The position numbers and the translations under genes are program-made. Shown piece after piece: positions 11,653 to 64,000 of a stretch of DNA of 64,000 nt (the stretch's first letter is position 1; each line of letters begins with the position of its first letter). The stretch lies in NCBI GenBank assembly GCA_951804945.1, contig OX638164.1, positions 18,228,001 through 18,292,000 on the forward strand. Direction: 5' to 3'. The notes below the pieces were generated by a model, which searched no databases, was not told the origin of the DNA, and saw only the letters and a program-made list of their open reading frames with translations. Source of the stretch: Podarcis cretensis. Lineage: Eukaryota.

Positions 11653-12385
11653 TCAGCACTCTTGAAGCATGCAGGCGGTGGTAGCTGCTGGCGGCCGCGG
11701 CGAACCACATTTCTCTGAGGTGATAGGTTTCCCTGTGTAGTCAACGCACAAGGGGCTTCGTGTCCGCATTCCCTCTCCACACGTTTGAGAACAGGGGGAC
11801 CAAGGCCCCATCTGCCAGATGGGGCACGGGAAGTCACTGCAGGGCTTGATGTCCTCAGGCTTGAGGGATTTGTTGCAGGCTGAGGAGACCTGCCCTTCCA
11901 CATCCAGACACTCCACCGCTCGTCTCTGCCAGCCAGAGCCGCACGATTTCGAGCACTCGGACCAGTCTCCCAGGACCCACTGTGACGTTAGCATGGGCTT
12001 GATTACGTTGGCCAAGTTCTTCTCCTTGCTCTTCTGTTTGCTGAAGTGGACGTCCTTGGGGATAAAGAAGGTGTATCTCACCCTTGGGGGGAACAGCTCA
12101 GCGGAAACGGTCAACACCTGGACAGTAAGTGGCTCCGGGAGCTTCTGGAAACTTTGGATGCGTTCCAGGGTGGTAAGAGAGCCACTATATCTCAGTACAG
12201 TCCCCTTGATGAAAATGTCTTCTTCCATAGCTGAAATGGCAAGGTTTCCATTCAAGAGGTATTTGCCATCCAGGGTTTTCAGGGCTAAATAGTTTTGGTC
12301 AGGCCACACCCCTCGGCGACCGTGTTGCTTGATGTCAATATTGGTTGCTCCTGCGGGGATTGTGACAATGTCGTTATATCCAAAT
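11653..12385 (-). CDS. ADAMTS8: ADAMTS8 exon 9 coding part (spacer, TSR2, TSR3, stop)
   Basis: ccacag|ATTT; FGYNDIVTIPAGATNIDIKQ...YLLNGN...PEPLTVQ...WVLGDWSECSKSCG...WQMGPWSPCSQTCG...CMLQEC then TGA at 11655-11653. Confidence 0.96.
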
Positions 12386-13747
12386 CTGTGGAGACCAAAG
12401 AGACGTGTTTGTTTGATATATTAATACTGTGGTGGCCTCTGGCTTTAAACAATAAAAAGTTTCATTCATTCATTCCTCCATGGTCAGATAATTTTGTTAT
12501 GTCCGTGGTTTTTAAAGACTTGTTTTTATTTCAAATTTTAAATAATTATTTCATACCATTTTATGCAAATGCTTTTAAAAATTAAGGGGCATGAAATAAA
12601 TATTTCCAAATAAATAATAAAATAGATCATGAATATGTATTCTATCTACCACAGAATGAAATTGGCTTAAGTTGTCATCTCTCCCAAGCTACCCCTAGAC
12701 ACTGTGGCTATGTCAGGGGACAAGGACCGCTAAGGGAATGCCTAGCACCCTCACCAAATCTGTAAGTCCCAGGATTCGTGGAGGTGGGGGAGAGAGAGGT
12801 GATAATTCAGAAGCAGTTAGGGCTGTTGCTGCATCAGGTGCAGCATCCTAGAAATGTAGCAGAAGCTAGAGAGACACTTCATTTCCCAAGAAAAGAGGGA
12901 ATTGAACAGATAGGGCAAAAACAATGTGTTTTGATCATAAATGCAATGCCTTTTTTTAAAACAATTCCTTTATATATTCCTATCTCAAATGCCTGGGTGA
13001 AGTATTGAAAGAATACTGTATTGCTATCTGCCTGAACTTGAAGGTTTGTATCTCACTAGAGAACTAGGCTGACATATCCTTAACAATGGTAGGGTTCTCT
13101 CCCAGCCCTACCTGGAGATACTGGGAAGTGAACCTGGAATCTTCTGCATGCAAAGCAGATGCTGTCACTGAGCATTATTATTATTATTAATAATAATAAT
13201 AATAATAATAACCTACTTCACAGCAGAAAGCCATCAAATAGCATACAAAATAAAAGTGGAATAATACACAAGCTCTCAAAACAATAACACCATTCCTACA
13301 AACTCCAGAAACAGCACAACAAATTTCTTCAGCTACAAAATTGATATTCCATAAAGGAGCATGGCCCCTTCTGCAAAGAGACCCTCCCCTGTCCTCAGCA
13401 AGGAAAGTGCTTTATACATCGGTTGATCTATCTTATTACTGTTTGCATTGATGGGCAGTGCCTCTCGAGGGATACAGACAGGGAACATTCCTAGCTGTGC
13501 CTGAAGACACCAGGAACTGAAACTAGGGCCTTCTACATGCAAAGCTATGAGCTTTCCCCTTTGATCTATGATTTTTGTGCTTTTGCAGCACCATCTTTAA
13601 ATCCAGCTCCAGAACCATAATAAACAAGGAATCAGGTCAGCCATCGCCTCCTATGCAGTCTTCCTCTGGTCTACCCCGCCCTCGCCCAACCATCTCCCTC
13701 CTTCGCAATACTAGGATTGGCTCAAGCTGCCCTGGTCTGCCTCGTAC

Positions 13748-41312: not shown

Positions 41313-44047
41313 GGTCCCTACCCTTAAGGATCCTGCAATTTTAACTCCAGTAATGGAGAACACAGCAGAGGGAAAAGGAGGGAGAAGGTGAAGAAGCAAG
41401 AGCAGCAGGACGACTGAAGAAAATGCAGTTCTGTGTACATAGCCTTCTTTGCAATTGGGGATAAGGATTAAAGGGTTAAGCCAAAGGCTTGAAATAAATC
41501 TTTTCTATAGGGAGATGATGGATGTAATTGACTCAGCTCCAGTCTTTCTCGAGACAAAGGACTAGAGTGTTATTTTTATTCCCACAGAATTGAAATCGTT
41601 TTGAAAAAGTGATAGCTGCTTGTGGCATACGTACAGCCATCCGATTTTCACGTCAGGTAAATAGAGCTGGAAAGTTTTTGCATTGCTTAAAAAATCTGCA
41701 AAATCTGTTTGATTGAGAGCAAAAGTGGGATAAAAGGAAAGTTACACTTGTATGTATATTGTGTGTGTGTGTGGACACCATAGGAAGCAAAGTCTCTGTT
41801 ACAAACTTTTCTCTCTTCCTGCCCCAAGAGCCGAGGTTTCCTTAGTTCAGCAGTTCCATGTCATTTCTGCCAGCTGTTCATTGAGCACACATTCAGATTT
41901 GTTTGTTGGAAGGGTATATCGACCTGTGCCAAGCAACTATTATCCCTTGCTTTCCAAGGGTGCGTTTCCCAATCATTTCCCTCATCACAAAACGTCTGAT
42001 TTGAGTGGGGAGGGTGGTTTGTTGCACAGAGCAATAACCAGCTTTATTTGTGCAATCTGAGTTTGCTGGCATGTGGTTGAATCCCACCCCAAAAGAGCAA
42101 AAGTCTGGAAGAGACCAAAGTGCGATTCCACATGCATCCTGCCTATCATGGAAACGTTTCATACATCTTACTGCGTAATAAATATTCTCATTTAACATTT
42201 CTGAAGTTCCACCTGCTATGTGCTGAAAGAAAGAGGTCTCCCGAATAAACCTGACTTGTACTGAGCCCATTCCTGCTATTAGCACCTCAGATAAAATACT
42301 GTAACTTCCCCACTAGAAATGCAGGGACTGATGATGAACATGCGCCCCCACAAATACTCTGTTAGCAGAACCACTTGTAATGGCCCATGCACCTCTGTTC
42401 CCCTCTCATTTTAATAGAATGTCCTTCATATAATTTCTGCTTAATTTCACCACTGTGAAAGCCGCTGTCCTAGCAGAAGTTAGGATTTTCCTTGCACACA
42501 AGTTCCAGGATAGAAACTTCCCTTTTAGAGCTAACAAAGCTGAGTAAGACTTTCACACGGTGAACATAAATTTACTGATGTAAATGGTACTTGTGAAACC
42601 TGTGGGTCTCCTGGTTCAAGTGGTTCTCTTCAACCACGGCTTGGGGGTGGGTGTGGGGATGCAGCCCAAGAGAGAGGGAGGCTCCCATCAAAACATGACT
42701 TCTAGAACTTTTACTAATCTTATGTGGCTACTAATAGAGACTGTGCCTCTTCCCCTTCTCCTACTAAACAAAGCCCCAACCCCCCCCCCATTAGTCTCCA
42801 AAAGGTAGTATCAGGTACCAAATTAGTATACCAAAGAGGCAGACCTTACAATAATGAGGAACACAGATTAGCTTAACGGCTGTAATATCAAATTGCTTTA
42901 CAGTTCTCATGTCATCACCTGAGCATAGGCAAAATATGCTGTGCTTGTTTCCCACAATATTTTTTTTTAAAAACCCACAAAATATGTAGTTCAATTTTGC
43001 CTCTCTCTGGGCAAAATTATGCTTTGAAAAATAATTTTTCAAGCTTTCAAGTTCTGCAGCGCACTTTACCAGGTACAAAGAAAACAATGAGTTAAAATAC
43101 AGACGTTTCATCTCCACCAGACAAGGTGCAACTACATGTTACTGCAGACTCAGGCAGCTGCCAGAAATGTCATCTGGGTGTCGAGTTCCCTACCCCAAAC
43201 CCATAACATCTAGGAACATCCATCAGATATATGACTTCATCACACTGTGCAATATTCGATGATGTGAAGCTGGGGCGGGGAAATGCAGAACGTGATGACA
43301 TCACATTGCGAGGGATGTGTTAATTGTGTGTTATGGGTGTGGGGTGGTGAGCAGGGGATAACTCTACCCAGAGATGCTGTTTAGTGGAAGTTCCTTGTTA
43401 ACAAGTCTGCCCTTCTTTAGCAGTCTCAAAGAAGTGCGTTGTCCCACAACGACCCCTTGCACACCCCAGCATGGAGCATCATTCCCCCAGATGTTTTCCA
43501 CTATGATCATTTTTGCTATCATGTGCCTTAAAGTGTTCACAGTGCTTCACAAGTGTTCTTCCCAGTAAGTAGCCCTGCAAAGTGGATCAGAATTATTATG
43601 GCCCTTACCCCATAAAATTACAGACAGGAGGCTGAAAGACAGCAATGAACAAACCACACATTTAAAGCACATCATGCACACCCCATAAGAATTCTGGGAA
43701 GGGTAGTTTGCTGGGGATTGTAGCTGTGTGGGGTGAACTACAGTTCTCAAGATTCTTAGGGTATGTGTGTGCTTTAAATGTGCTTTGTATGTGTTGTGTG
43801 AACGCAACCAGAAGTTAATGTGCATTAAATGTATGGTGTCTACGCAGCCAGAAGTTGAAGGCAAGCGAGATTTGGAGAAGTACTGCTCAAGGCTCATGCT
43901 TTTACCATAACCTGCCCCTGACTGCATCACCCCAGATCTACCACCCCACCCACAGCTCAAAGATTCCCACTATTGGCATGCACCGCCCAACCTGCACCTG
44001 CTCTGAGCATCTAAAAGGAAGAGAAGGAGAGTTGAAGCACTGCTTAC

Positions 44048-44704
44048 CGTCAGGTCTTCCCCATAGAACTGGAGCATGGAGGCATCAGCCACCAGCAGGG
44101 TCTCCACATAGCGGGCTTCTGAGATGAACCTCTTGGTTCTGCTGGTGCTGTTGGACTCTGCTACCCGGGATTCCTCTTCTGGGATGTCCTCTCCAGCTTC
44201 TTTTGCCCACCCCCTCTTCTGGAGCTGGTGGGCCTGCAGCAGAGGATCTCCATTCTCATGACCTTGTGGGTGGATGACATATTTGTCTCCATCCACCAAG
44301 AAGGAGCCACGGATGCCCTGGCACAGGCTGACAGCCACCAGGGAGTCTGGCTGGGAGTTCACAGTCCCCGAGTAGAAGCAGCTCCGGAGCCCCACGTCCT
44401 CCTTAGCAAGGAGCTCCTTCCTACCCACGTGCTGGATCTTCAGCCCAGGTGCCAAGAAGCTGGCATCTGGCTTCAACTGCAGGACAAACTCCTTCCTGAA
44501 GGCACGGATGGAGAAGGAAACCTGCCCTTCGCTTCCCGGAGGGACCATCCAGACTGGCACCACCCCCTGGGAGTCGCTGTCCTGGGTGGGCAGTGCCCAG
44601 GCATTGCCAAGCAGTCGCAAGACCAGCAGCAGAGGGAAGAAGAGCGTGCGGGCAGCGGCCAGCCTGCCAGCCGAGGGCTGCGGTGCTTGCAGAGAAAGGG
44701 GCAT
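44048..44704 (-). CDS. ADAMTS8: ADAMTS8 exon 1: signal peptide, prodomain, furin site RTKR (44129-44140), start of catalytic domain
   Basis: ATG at 44704 gives MPLSLQ...LFFPLLLVLRLLGNAWA (hydrophobic signal), CFYSGTVN prodomain motif and RTKR|FISEARYVETLLVADASM; donor ACG|GTAAGC, phase 0. Confidence 0.92.
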
Positions 44705-45254
44705 TGATGCTATCAGGGAGCCAGTGACGGGATGGGAAGAGCAGGCTCGGTTGAAGAAACAGCAAAGTCCCCAGCTGTGTATGCTGCAAATTGGCAAGCC
44801 ACGATCCCCAGGGAAAAACTTGTGGCTTGAAATTGATAGGAGAGAGTGAACAAATTTGGGGTTTTAATGCCAGGTTTAGTTAGCAGCAACTTGCCCAGCG
44901 TAGAGGGAGAATTGAGGGGGGGGGAGCGGGCGGGAAAATCCTTTTTCTCCCCAAAGGTTGCTTTGTGGGGTTCCTTCTGTTACCAGCTTCCAAAGTAGCT
45001 CTTGCACCTTTCCGGGCAAAAGATGCAGCAACAAAGCGGGCTGTCCACTTGGAAAAAAGTGTGTCGAGTTGAAAGAGGCTGGGACTGGGTGGGTGTTGGA
45101 ATCCTGATTTCTCTCTTTCTCTCTGCCTCTCTGAGTTTCCCTCCCTTCCCTTCCTAAGAAGCTCTCTAGCTCTCTCCCTAGGCTGCTGCGCTCTCTCCCT
45201 GGGCTGCTTCTTCCCAAGCCTTTGAAGCACCAAATCTGGCTGCAGAGTCCTCGG

Positions 45255-58049: not shown

Positions 58050-59015
58050 GCCAGAAGAGAAGACACAGAGGTGACATGATAGACATCTTCAAATATCTGT
58101 CACACAAAAGAGGGAGCAAGCTTGTTTTCTGTTGCTCCAGAGGGTGGGATCTGAACCAATGGATTTAAAATACAAGATTAACAGAGACAATTAGGGGACA
58201 ACCCAGACAAGAATTTCCAAAAAAATGGGGGAAATGCAGAAAATAATTTACCAAACAGTGCCCCAAAATATATACCTGGACTTGTTTCGATTACGGTAAT
58301 TTCTACAGGAGACTTTGCTTTTTTAAAAAAAGTCATAACTAGGAAAAATTGTAATAATCACATATAAAAAACAAGAAGTAAATAAGGAGGCCATTTACAG
58401 GATAAAGGAAGTCTTTTATTTTTCTAGTTACAGATAGGTAGCCGTGTTGGTCTGCCATAGTCAAAACAAAATAAAAAAAATAAAAAAATTCCTTCCAGTA
58501 GCACCTTAAAGACCAACTAAGTTAGTTCTTGGTATGAGCTTTCTCATACCAAGAACTAACTTAGTTGGTCTTTAAGGTGCTACTGGAAGGAATTTTTTTA
58601 TTTTGTTTTATTTTTCTGTTATGTTTTCTTTATGTAAAGTAATAGGAGTTTAATTTTGATAATTAAATTGTCAATGATGGTGGGTTTGTATGTATGTATG
58701 TATGTATGTATGTATGTATGTATGTATGTGTGAGTTGATGTGGACTATGTTGTAAACAAATTATTAGTAAAAAATAAAATAAAATACAAGAAGAGATTCT
58801 GACTAAACATTTGGAAGAACTTGCTGCTGCTGAGAGCTATATGACAGTGGAATGGACTCCCTTGGAAGGTGGTGGACTCTCCTTCATTGAAGGTTTTTGA
58901 ACGGAGGTTAGGAGGTAATCTGTCAGGGGATTCTTTAGCTGTGATTGCTGCACTGCAGGGGGGGGGCTGGGCTAGATGACCTTTGGGGGTGCCTTCTGCA
59001 ATTTTGTTATTCTAT
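58050..59015 (+). mobile_element. CR1 3' end interrupted by an L1-like fragment (58178-58779)
   Basis: gaggtgacatgata...ttcaaata and gactaaacatt...ggaagaactt...ctagatgacc CR1 motifs; TSD taaaatacaaga (58166-58177 / 58780-58791). Confidence 0.75.
58426..58605. mobile_element. Penelope-like element remnant with fold-back inverted repeat
   Basis: ggtagccgtgttggtctg and gtagcaccttaaagaccaac motifs; perfect 62-bp arms; 12-bp TSD ttttatttttct. Confidence 0.75.
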
Positions 59016-60855: not shown

Positions 60856-61978
60856 TAATATTTATTACCTGTCCTTCACCAGAAGTTCCCAGGGTGGGTT
60901 ACAGCAATAAAAAATGCAACATTAAACACAGTTTTAGACAAATTATAAATGTATCTAGAATGGCTCCGTGTGTGTGTGTTGGGGGGTGTAGCCAAAGGTC
61001 ATGACAAAGAGGTGTGTCTTCAGCATAAAACAATAGCTGCCCAATGAAGGTGGTGGATGCACCTCTGTGGAGAGGGAATTCCAAAGGTTAGGGCTCACCC
61101 CTGTGAAGCTCTGAAGATAGTGGAAACAACAAGAGCCCACCCACCCACCGCTGATCACAACACCCAAGAGGATCTGTAAGGAAGGATGCCATTTCTTATT
61201 TATTTGGGACCTAGGACATTTAGGGATTTAAACACTAATGTGAGCACCTTGAACTGGATCCGGAAACAAAATGTCAGACAACATGACTTTAAAAAAAATA
61301 AAACGGGTGGTATGAGTTCTAAAGGGAACCCCAGCTGGTAAACCGGCCTCTGCATATTGGACCAGTTGAAATTTCCAAGTTGTCCTCAAGGGCAGCCCTT
61401 GTGACCAAGTCACGCTGTCCAAAAAGGCCAAAACTGGTGGAGCAGCTGTAGCTGGAAAAAAACCAACTCTCCTTGCCATTAAGGCCACCTGAGCCTCCAA
61501 GGACAAAGTTCAACCCAGGATATACAGAACTGCTTTTTCCAGGGGAATGCAACTCCCTCTATGTCAAACCATCTCTCCATGTCCCAGACTTTAAAACTCA
61601 GTGCAACGGATAATCCCTCTGCCTTTTCAGGCTACAGCTTCATACAAAAGTGCTCACTAGGGAGCCTGATTTGGGTGTGTCTGCTGGCACAGCAGGTGGC
61701 ATTGCGGTCTAAACCACTGAGCCTCTTGGGCTTGCCGATCAGAAGGTTGGCAGTTCGAATCCCTGAAATGAAGTGAGCTCCCGTTGCTCTGTCCCAGCTC
61801 CTGCCAACCTAGTAGTTCGAAAGCATACCAGTGCAAGTAGATAAGGAGGTACCACTTTGGCGGGAAGGTAAAAGGTGTTTCCGTGAGCTCTCGTTTCTGT
61901 CACGGTGCTCCATTGTGCCAGAAGCGGTTTAGTAATGCTGTCCACATGACCTGGAAAGCTGTCTGTGGACAAACACCG

Positions 61979-62554
61979 TGTGCTGATCCCGGGGGGAAGG
62001 TTACCGTTGGCGTAGTCAAAGTCCGGTCCTGGGTCACTAGCCTGGAATCAGTCCACAAGGAGCGGGGCGAGGTCCGAAGCAGGAAGCCGGGCGGGGACAG
62101 GAGCACTGGAGAGTCAGGTCTGGGTCCGGGCAGGAACAGGTACTCAACAACGACGTTGCTCCCACAACCTGGGACCGGGCCGACTGGCCTTTATCTGTTC
62201 TGAGGCCAGGGGTGGTCCCGGCCCCTAGGAGACCCGCCTCTCTTGGCCTTAAGGCGAGCACTCCTCCTGGGAGAAACCAGTTCCCTTCGCCTCTCTGCCC
62301 TGAGCCTCTGCAGTTCAGGAGAGGCTAAAGGGTTACTGGGCCCAGGGGGAGACTCACCTGTAGGCACTGAGTTCTCAACCACCTCTGGAGCCAGAGTGGG
62401 ATCACCTGGTGCCTGCTCCTGAGGATCCGGCACAGGTGCAAGCGCTTCAGAATCAAGGCCCTGGCCCAGTTCAGACAGCCCTGAAGGCGGGGACTCCTGT
62501 GCAGGCTGGGATTCCTCTGGTTCAGCCTCTGAATCGGAATCCCAGGCCATCACA
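61979..62554 (-). mobile_element. Solo LTR (Gypsy-like, 576 bp) inserted in a Sauria SINE
   Basis: TG...CA termini with imperfect inverted ends (TGTGATG/TGTGCTG); 5-bp TSD caccg/ccccg; cleanly splits a SINE; CpG-rich. Confidence 0.85.
62191..62550 (-). CDS. Putative LTR-encoded 119-aa acidic/basic microprotein with RRSARL motif
   Basis: ATG at LTR nt 5 in a strong Kozak context (GTGATGG), uninterrupted frame, sharply partitioned charge, stop codon overlapping a TATA-like GATAAA. No expression evidence. Confidence 0.5.
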   Translation of the reverse strand: MAWDSDSEAEPEESQPAQESPPSGLSELGQGLDSEALAPVPDPQEQAPGDPTLAPEVVENSVPTGESPPGPSNPLASPELQRLRAERRRELVSPRRSARLKAKRGGSPRGRDHPWPQNR

Positions 62555-64000
62555 CCCCGACTCCCTCAGCCTGAAAGTGAGATGAGCAGCGCAACCCCAT
62601 TGACTGGACTTTACTATCCAGGGGTCCTTTACCTCTTTACCTTTTTTTACCTCGCTGGCTAGCAAGACAAAGTTTACCACTTTGGGATGAATGAAATGGC
62701 CATAAGTCCCATGATGCAGCTTTCCCACAAGCATCTGATTACATTTAGGTTGGGCTTGATCTTGTTCCATCGCAAGAAGCCATCCTTCTTGGTCAGCCTG
62801 AGAGCTGTTGGCCCAGGCAACAGGAAGAACGTCCCTTGCACACTCTTGGGCCGGTATCCAGCCTCTTGCTGCTGCCAGCCTTTCAAGTGAAGGCAAGTGG
62901 AGTGGAGAGACAAAGAGAATATTTCCTCAGCTCCTCAAGCCCTTTCCAGTCTATCTTTGGCTTGGAACTCTTGAAAGGGCTATATTAAACCAGAGTGATT
63001 GTTGTTTTCAAAGCAGAATATAGGGTGAGATCTCTGGGTTTTTCTCATCTTTCTTCTGGCTTTAAATTACTGACATTTCACACAAGGCTTCCAGAAGAGA
63101 CAGAAATGTGCCTTTGTAGTAGGGGAAGATGGGTGCAGTCAGAGAAAGAAGAGGGTGAATGTGCAACAAGAATAAGTGCTCTGATTTGCAGATCAGGGTA
63201 ATTTGGATTTACTTAGCCAGAAAACTCCATTGCAATTTTTTGGAGAAATGTGAATTTCAAAGGATAGCTGTGTTTGGAAAATGCAAATTTGCTTCAGTTC
63301 ACTTTTAAATGGGAACTGAATCAAATTTCCCCCTCTTCCCTACTCCTCAGATTAGTTAAGCCCACACAGACTTTGAGTTGCAGATCTTGATGTATTTATG
63401 TATTTATGTCAATACATTTAACTTTAGTTTATCCAATGGCCTTGTGCCTGGTCTCTTTATCTGGTGGTCCCTGGCAAAGGTACCCCAAAATTATGGAAGT
63501 TTGCTTTGTTATGAAAAAAAATTGTTTGGAGATGTAATGTTAAAGGGTATATACTACGTCACAAGGCACTCAACCAAAATGATTGGTCAAAAATTGGTTT
63601 AGAACTAACTTTCATGGTTTTGACTGATGAGTCAACTGATTTAAACAGTCCCTTGTGAACTGGAGGTGGTTTGATGATTCAGAATGAAGAAAATGGCACA
63701 GTAATGCTGGAGTGTAATTTTAATCTATCATAGTTTGCCGCACCCCACAAGCTGAAATCAGATTTAGGTGGCAAAAGTGGCATTTTGCCATGGGTCCTTG
63801 AATCCTTCTCCAGATGTTCCTCTCCATCAGAAGCTGGTCCACACACCTCATCATAAATATTGGCTCAAAAAATGTAACCAAAGCAGGAAATGTAGTTTCA
63901 GTCCTCTCACCTTCCACCCGGCTCTTGATATTTTTCCATGAATCGGCACAGAAGAAGAACATGTTCACACGTCATCATAATGCGCCACAACCACCAACAT

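Follow-up and report, generated by a model that had tools for sequence, protein, structure and literature searches.

An intact reading frame of 119 codons within the U3 region of a lizard solo LTR raises the question of what such a frame encodes and how it comes to lie inside an LTR. The LTR is found in a window of 64,000 nucleotides of Podarcis cretensis DNA (contig OX638164.1, positions 18,228,001 to 18,292,000), and an earlier note, made from the letters of this window, had read the frame as an accessory microprotein carrying the nucleosome-binding motif of HMGN proteins. We confirmed the anatomy described there: a 576-bp element that begins with TG and ends with CA occupies positions 61979-62554 on the minus strand, an ATG at LTR nt 5 opens the 119-codon frame (62550-62191, minus strand), and the stop codon overlaps a TATA-like GATAAAG (LTR nt 360-366; 62189-62195, minus strand) that may function as a promoter element. 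The 5-bp target-site duplication is sound as a property of the family, being perfect in 24 of the 30 top copies and at 63 of 93 loci, with one mismatch at 17 more, but in the window copy only four of the five bases match (62555-62559 adjoining the 5' end of the LTR, 61974-61978 adjoining its 3' end). The LTR interrupts an older interspersed repeat of about 350 bp, which we take to be Sauria SINE-like, leaving a left part at 61703-61978 and a right part at 62560-62663. Since the split repeat aligns across the LTR junction with two other copies in the window, at 82-87% identity, the LTR boundaries are confirmed. The window also holds exons of an ADAMTS-family host gene on the minus strand (reprolysin propeptide at 43973-44863, spacer plus TSP1 at 11656-12420); the LTR shares their orientation, sits about 17 kb upstream of the propeptide exon and is probably intergenic. 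A near-perfect inverted repeat of 71 nt with a 4-nt spacer spans window positions 58468-58613.

The split of charges seen in the earlier note is exact. Residues 1-81 (62308-62550, minus strand) form an acidic, Pro/Ser/Glu-rich linker, presumably disordered and differing in length between subfamilies in whole codons, with 17 Asp/Glu and no Lys/Arg, and residues 82-119 hold 14 Lys/Arg. A conserved basic block covers residues 77-100 (62251-62322, minus strand) and finishes in RRSARL (62268-62251, minus strand). The frame is not a chance one, as the note had argued: among the 30 closest copies, which are 97% alike and were chosen for likeness, 26 hold all 119 codons and 23 hold an exact RRSARL in frame. 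A Pfam scan of the 119 residues returned no family at E up to 10, HMG14_17 included, and the last 41 residues, searched against PDB sequences with the same E limit, likewise gave no match.

First-look candidates for the LTR number 2,140 by DNA and 4,894 by protein in the genome, against roughly 41 near-complete integrase-chromodomain matches at an identity of at least 78%. LTR candidates far outnumber these matches, and solo LTRs therefore dominate. The family is abundant and recently active; in 8 of 14 two-LTR copies the LTRs are at least 98.5% identical, and two LTR-pair identities of 0.73 and 0.85 are probably alignment artefacts.

A pattern search found a recurring junction in which a purine tract is followed by the start of the LTR, with an integrase and a chromodomain upstream. 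The two-LTR elements are about 5.5 kb long, and one of them holds a single frame of 1,544 codons without a stop, running from gag to the LTR tail. Along this frame Pfam places Gag, a zinc knuckle, protease, reverse transcriptase, RNase H, integrase, Tf2 SH3 and Chromo, so that the pol domains stand in the Gypsy order PR-RT-RH-IN; no env domain is among the element's Pfam matches. The Chromo domain (PF00385, residues 1358-1405, E 9e-15) keeps a Y-W-Y aromatic cage, as read from the translation. The full elements lack a tRNA primer site after their 5' LTR. The sequence directly after this LTR is complementary to LTR nt 390-399, 30 nt past GATAAAG (62156-62165 in the window, minus strand), over 10 nt in two of three elements and 7 nt in the third, and self-priming of this kind is described as the arrangement of the Tf1/Sushi group (PMC6317226). 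The element is a chromodomain Gypsy of the Tf1/sushi type, a classification that rests on domain order, aromatic cage and self-priming arrangement, the tree of fish, frog and squamate homologs covering the integrase-chromodomain part only and holding no named reference element. The full-length copies, by which the earlier note had proposed to classify the family, thus exist, and the class of the solo copy in the window is taken from them. From the self-priming complement we infer that the RNA starts near LTR nt 390, and the whole 119-codon frame would therefore lie in U3. It follows that transcription from the element's promoter can include the tail only where it closes gag-pol, in the 3' LTR.

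In the two-LTR elements the order is integrase, chromodomain, polypurine tract and then the tail codons inside the 3' LTR; read-through of pol across the polypurine tract is what places the tail in U3. The 119-codon frame is thus very probably the C-terminal tail of a single Gag-Pol polyprotein. In the solo copy of the window the stop-to-stop frame around the 119 codons starts at 62565 and is severed from pol. A contig from another public run bridges chromodomain and LTR without a gap, and Podarcis muralis Gag-Pol entries in UniRef, full-length ones included, finish in the tail (93% identity over 200 query residues). A UniRef gene model (P0012), in which the ATG of the 5' LTR is the start and is joined to gag, is probably a prediction artefact. 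Among 38 distinct junctions at which both anchors were found, duplicates and loci lacking an anchor being excluded, 18 are in frame, and 15 and 5, respectively, fall in the two other frames; the single most frequent junction length is the in-frame one (16 of 38), and 13 junctions read through to the motif. With 20 of the 38 out of frame, many copies would end their integrase without the tail. Nearly all differences in junction length fall within or adjoin a G homopolymer upstream of the polypurine tract, and may reflect slippage or assembly error. The length of this G run (3' junctions L031-L080, L111, L204-L211) varies from copy to copy and toggles inclusion of the tail in Pol.

A protein of its own, started at the LTR's ATG from a spliced or read-through RNA and serving, in solo LTRs too, as a tether or transactivator, is how the earlier note had read the frame; in a variant, the protease would clip the tail free. 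In its favour, all four subfamilies retain the ATG, whose Kozak context is strong, about half of the junctions uncouple the tail from pol, and host transcripts could cross thousands of solo copies. The frame, however, is continuous with pol and lies upstream of the inferred transcription start site, and its ATG sits within the att end of the LTR, which in the window copy fits the Sushi att consensus TGTYANR (PMC3601003) except at one base. Two related families whose Pol also reads into the LTR lack the ATG. Nor does the tail have a stand-alone homolog: the sole match among 52 candidates of 65-209 aa, a Podarcis gene model, carries a chromodomain. In 17 sequencing runs guessed as RNA only 0.09-0.17 of the query words were present; four of these, compared at a junction as contigs that cannot show expression, strand or start, gave no listed splice joint leading into the start of the LTR. 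A separate accessory protein is improbable. The U3-overlapping genes sag of MMTV and nef of HIV encode separate proteins from their own mRNAs; the overlap with U3 is alike, but the lizard frame is the end of Pol, and a microprotein of the nef or sag kind is not supported. For the acidic transactivator role nothing was found. Solo LTRs do carry the tail, as the earlier note had foreseen, but as a passive by-product rather than as an accessory gene.

The tail frame is real protein-coding sequence under purifying selection. Real copies were compared pairwise across four subfamilies (28, 15, 24 and 21 copies), with 19 copies that had a frameshift or a lost motif dropped beforehand and a further 12 3'-LTR copies of the window's subfamily kept outside the counts. 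Fixed differences at codon positions 1/2/3 amount to 26/26/49 between subfamilies A1 and C, 31/25/55 between A2 and C and 24/22/49 between B and C (permutation P = 0.001 for each), and to 21/14/30 between A2 and B (P = 0.012); the third-position excess is not significant in the closest contrasts, A1-A2 (P = 0.08) and A1-B (P = 0.20). The contrasts are six non-independent comparisons, and guiding the alignment by protein may bias the gapped linker towards a third-position pattern; the basic block is ungapped. Within subfamilies pN/pS, which serves as the neutral baseline, is 0.54-0.64. Between subfamilies the net value for the whole tail (0.42-0.67) is only modestly below this baseline, and the 24-codon basic block, at 0.12-0.27, is the only clearly lower part; its B-C fixed differences are 3/0/10. 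The selection anticipated in the earlier note is thus clear for the basic block, but modest for the tail as a whole and not significant in the two closest contrasts. The in-frame bias of indels that the note had proposed as a further sign is present: the recurrent indels that separate subfamilies in U3 add up to -30, -69 and -39 nt, all multiples of three, except for a 1-nt gap in the stop region between A1 and A2, while most of those in R/U5 are not divisible by three. Across the four subfamilies RRSARL is retained and has undergone no fixed amino-acid change, while the linker drifts. Its six codons show 0-1 changes even at third positions, with one synonymous change, and constraint at the DNA level, as part of the promoter, may therefore contribute.

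Such constraint is central to the idea that the frame is neutral read-through, open since the family is young and GC-rich, with promoter DNA elements accounting for its conservation. The likeness of the top copies, the conservation of the RRSARL codons at synonymous sites and the two non-significant contrasts would fit this idea. It is nevertheless largely refuted, and we regard it as very improbable, given the third-position excess in four of six subfamily pairs, the net indels of up to -69 nt that keep the frame, and the recurrence of the acidic-then-basic layout in other families and species.

What, then, would a conserved basic block at the end of an integrase do? The HMGN core RRSARLSA, like related motifs of the otherwise unrelated proteins Dsup and Dot5, binds the nucleosome acidic patch (PMC12487698, PMC13347269), and by this motif definition the tail has the R-R-S-x-R-[LI] core, sharing six of the eight HMGN letters and also the last A, the two letters after RRSARL being KA. 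When the tail is shuffled, the word RRSxR[LIV], which was chosen after being seen, arises in 0.09% of cases, and when only its basic part is shuffled, in 0.44%. A complex modelled from tail residues 76-112 (37 residues) and the Podarcis genome's own H2A and H2B scored 0.70, against 0.02 for the best of the controls, which were unrelated proteins and not Arg-rich peptides. In a benchmark that does not cover peptides, 51 of 78 solved complexes attain that mark, as do 2 of 108 mismatched pairs; on eukaryotes the counts are 39 of 65 and 2 of 126, respectively. Model runs agree in at least 76% of contacts, with a partner pLDDT of at least 59. Confident contacts come only from residues 94-102, with R95 placed at H2B Q47, R96 and S97 at H2A E64/E61 and R99 at H2A E61, the register reported for Dsup (PMC12487698); H2A D90/E92 are not among them. 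Because similar HMGN, Dsup and LANA complexes have been solved, the model may draw on memory, and it shows likeness rather than binding. The earlier note's reading of RRSARL as an HMGN-like acidic-patch motif is thus borne out in the match of the core and in the docking predicted on the H2A-H2B patch. Its SPRR, taken there for a CDK site, is rejected as a conserved one: SP precedes RRSARL in the subfamily of the window LTR, but in the other three this place is mostly taken by AP, SR and TR.

The same Pol tail may instead end in a basic block that is mainly a nuclear localization signal or a general DNA-binding patch, RRSARL being coincidental in an Arg-rich stretch. Basic clusters occur in all related tails and the literal RRSARL does not; Ty1 integrase is reported to have a C-terminal localization signal, and such signals have been proposed for beet CRM elements (PMC3605345); and with many families in existence, a word that arises in 0.44% of shuffled basic parts could turn up in one of them. 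Coincidence sits poorly, however, with the lack of any fixed amino-acid change in the motif among four subfamilies whose linker drifts, with a matching motif in a separate frog-like lineage, and with a model that uses only residues 94-102 of 37 and does so in the Dsup register. We consider this reading unlikely, though clearly less so than a separate accessory protein. An acidic-patch tether is the likely working role of the tail. For the reading as a whole, namely a Pol tail in U3 with RRSARL as the likely anchor of the integrase on the nucleosome acidic patch, we put the probability at a little above 0.6.

The layout of the tail is wider than its motif. Two other families in the Podarcis genome, at 41-48% identity over the integrase-chromodomain part, likewise have a Pol that extends into the 3' LTR, and their tails too are first acidic, then basic; the LTRs of both open with TGTCAGG, without an ATG, and FxGF-type motifs replace RRSARL. 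In one of them, a second chromodomain Gypsy family (L119, L121-L127), the acidic motif EEEFIGF lies after the chromodomain and before the polypurine tract, and Pol runs about 100 codons into the family's own 3' LTR; EEEFIGF resembles FxGF, the consensus of LEDGF/IBD partners (bioRxiv 10.1101/624023). A third family (L128, L215-L218) is very young, with LTRs 100% identical in L128 and dozens of frames of 1,333-1,334 codons, and has two acidic FxGF motifs, both present in the five copies read, plus an LTR-encoded basic end. Proteins of Rhineura floridana and Vipera latastei carry a similar acidic-then-basic tail after the chromodomain, without RRSxRL. From these sequences the layout appears common to the squamate families seen. 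The conservation of RRSxRL that the earlier note had proposed to test holds across the four subfamilies, but not in the tails of Rhineura, Vipera and the two other lizard families.

Among homolog tails, many of them from truncated or chimeric gene models, RRSxR[LIV] occurs in 3 of 152, two of the three from the family of the window LTR, and in a second search in 2 of 47 short tails, one of which is already among the 152-tail matches. Two frog-like integrases (P0034 and P0172, ENA) have a very short tail after the chromodomain that finishes in RRSARI or RRSQRL, a part that we infer to sit in the LTR; RRSARI equals the first six letters of the Dot5 motif. Both of these outside carriers of RRSxR[LI] group with frog elements in a tree of 36 rows and 146 columns, and a single clade of carriers that includes the lizard family was rejected (p-AU 6e-7). 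Therefore, the motif was either gained more than once or lost repeatedly.

With this in mind, one may sketch how the tail would work. The protease would leave the tail attached to the integrase, whose chromodomain, with its Y-W-Y cage, would read a methyl-lysine histone tail, and the acidic linker of about 95 residues would let the basic block reach H2A-H2B. Chromodomain and arginine anchor would together give the pre-integration complex a two-point grip on the nucleosome, and the basic block may double as a nuclear import signal. Reverse transcription would copy U3 into both LTRs, and LTR-LTR recombination would leave thousands of solo copies, in which transcription from the LTR's own start site would miss the tail, as the tail lies further upstream. 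Around 80 insertion sites there was no nucleosome-type periodicity of 10-11 bp (P = 0.16, in an underpowered set), and the sites show only a weak palindromic base preference. More tentatively, the integrase tail of sushi-type vertebrate elements may be an exchangeable module, encoded partly in the LTR, that imitates motifs with which host proteins dock on chromatin: an HMGN-like anchor in some families, gained at least twice (in lizards and in a frog-like lineage), and acidic FxGF motifs of the LEDGF-binding type in others. Together with the chromodomain, such tails would set the integration preference of each family. For annotation the family calls for caution, as an intact ORF across thousands of solo LTRs may be the end of Pol and not a microprotein gene.

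How does this family compare with known systems? It is closest to the Tf1/Sushi chromoviruses (V-clade of GyDB, with Sushi-ichi and Amn), with which it shares a single gag-pol frame, the order PR-RT-RH-IN and the Tf2 SH3 domain, as well as an aromatic-cage chromodomain, self-priming without a tRNA site, an LTR of about 570 bp and a 5-bp target-site duplication (PMC6317226, PMC3601003). It differs from them in that the lizard Pol goes on for about 116-131 codons into U3 and finishes in an HMGN-like motif. In the open literature searched, we found no description of a vertebrate sushi-type Pol that runs into the LTR, nor of an HMGN-like motif on a retrotransposon integrase. Pol tails inside LTRs as such are already known: in the plant CRM group A and in some beet Bingo elements gag-pol extends into the 3' LTR, and for CRM group A the LTR-encoded part is described as a putative chromatin-targeting domain (PMC3059260, PMC3605345). 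What is new, as far as we found, is the HMGN-like motif in such a tail. The likeness to CRM is one of layout. There, the CR motif replaces the chromodomain and priming uses tRNA-Met, whereas the lizard family self-primes and keeps a type I chromodomain upstream of the polypurine tract, its LTR-encoded part being an added acidic linker with a basic motif. Membership in CRM group A was rejected; a true chromodomain is present, and the top copies are spread over many contigs.

HMGN (RRSARLSA), Dsup (RRSSRLTS) and Dot5 (RRSARIAT) have in common with the lizard tail an R-R-S-x-R-[LI] core in a presumably disordered protein (PMC12487698, PMC13347269), but the tail belongs to a retrotransposon polyprotein and is not an HMGN protein. 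Viral tethers to the acidic patch have been reviewed for prototype foamy virus Gag, KSHV LANA and CMV IE1, in a text that does not mention retrotransposons (PMC9040877). As in these proteins, an arginine anchor would tether a mobile genome to nucleosomes; unlike in them, the predicted lizard anchor belongs to the integrase of a retrotransposon and has a chromodomain next to it. Should the tail prove to bind the acidic patch, this would be, in the literature found, the first retrotransposon integrase with an HMGN-like anchor and a parallel to foamy virus Gag.
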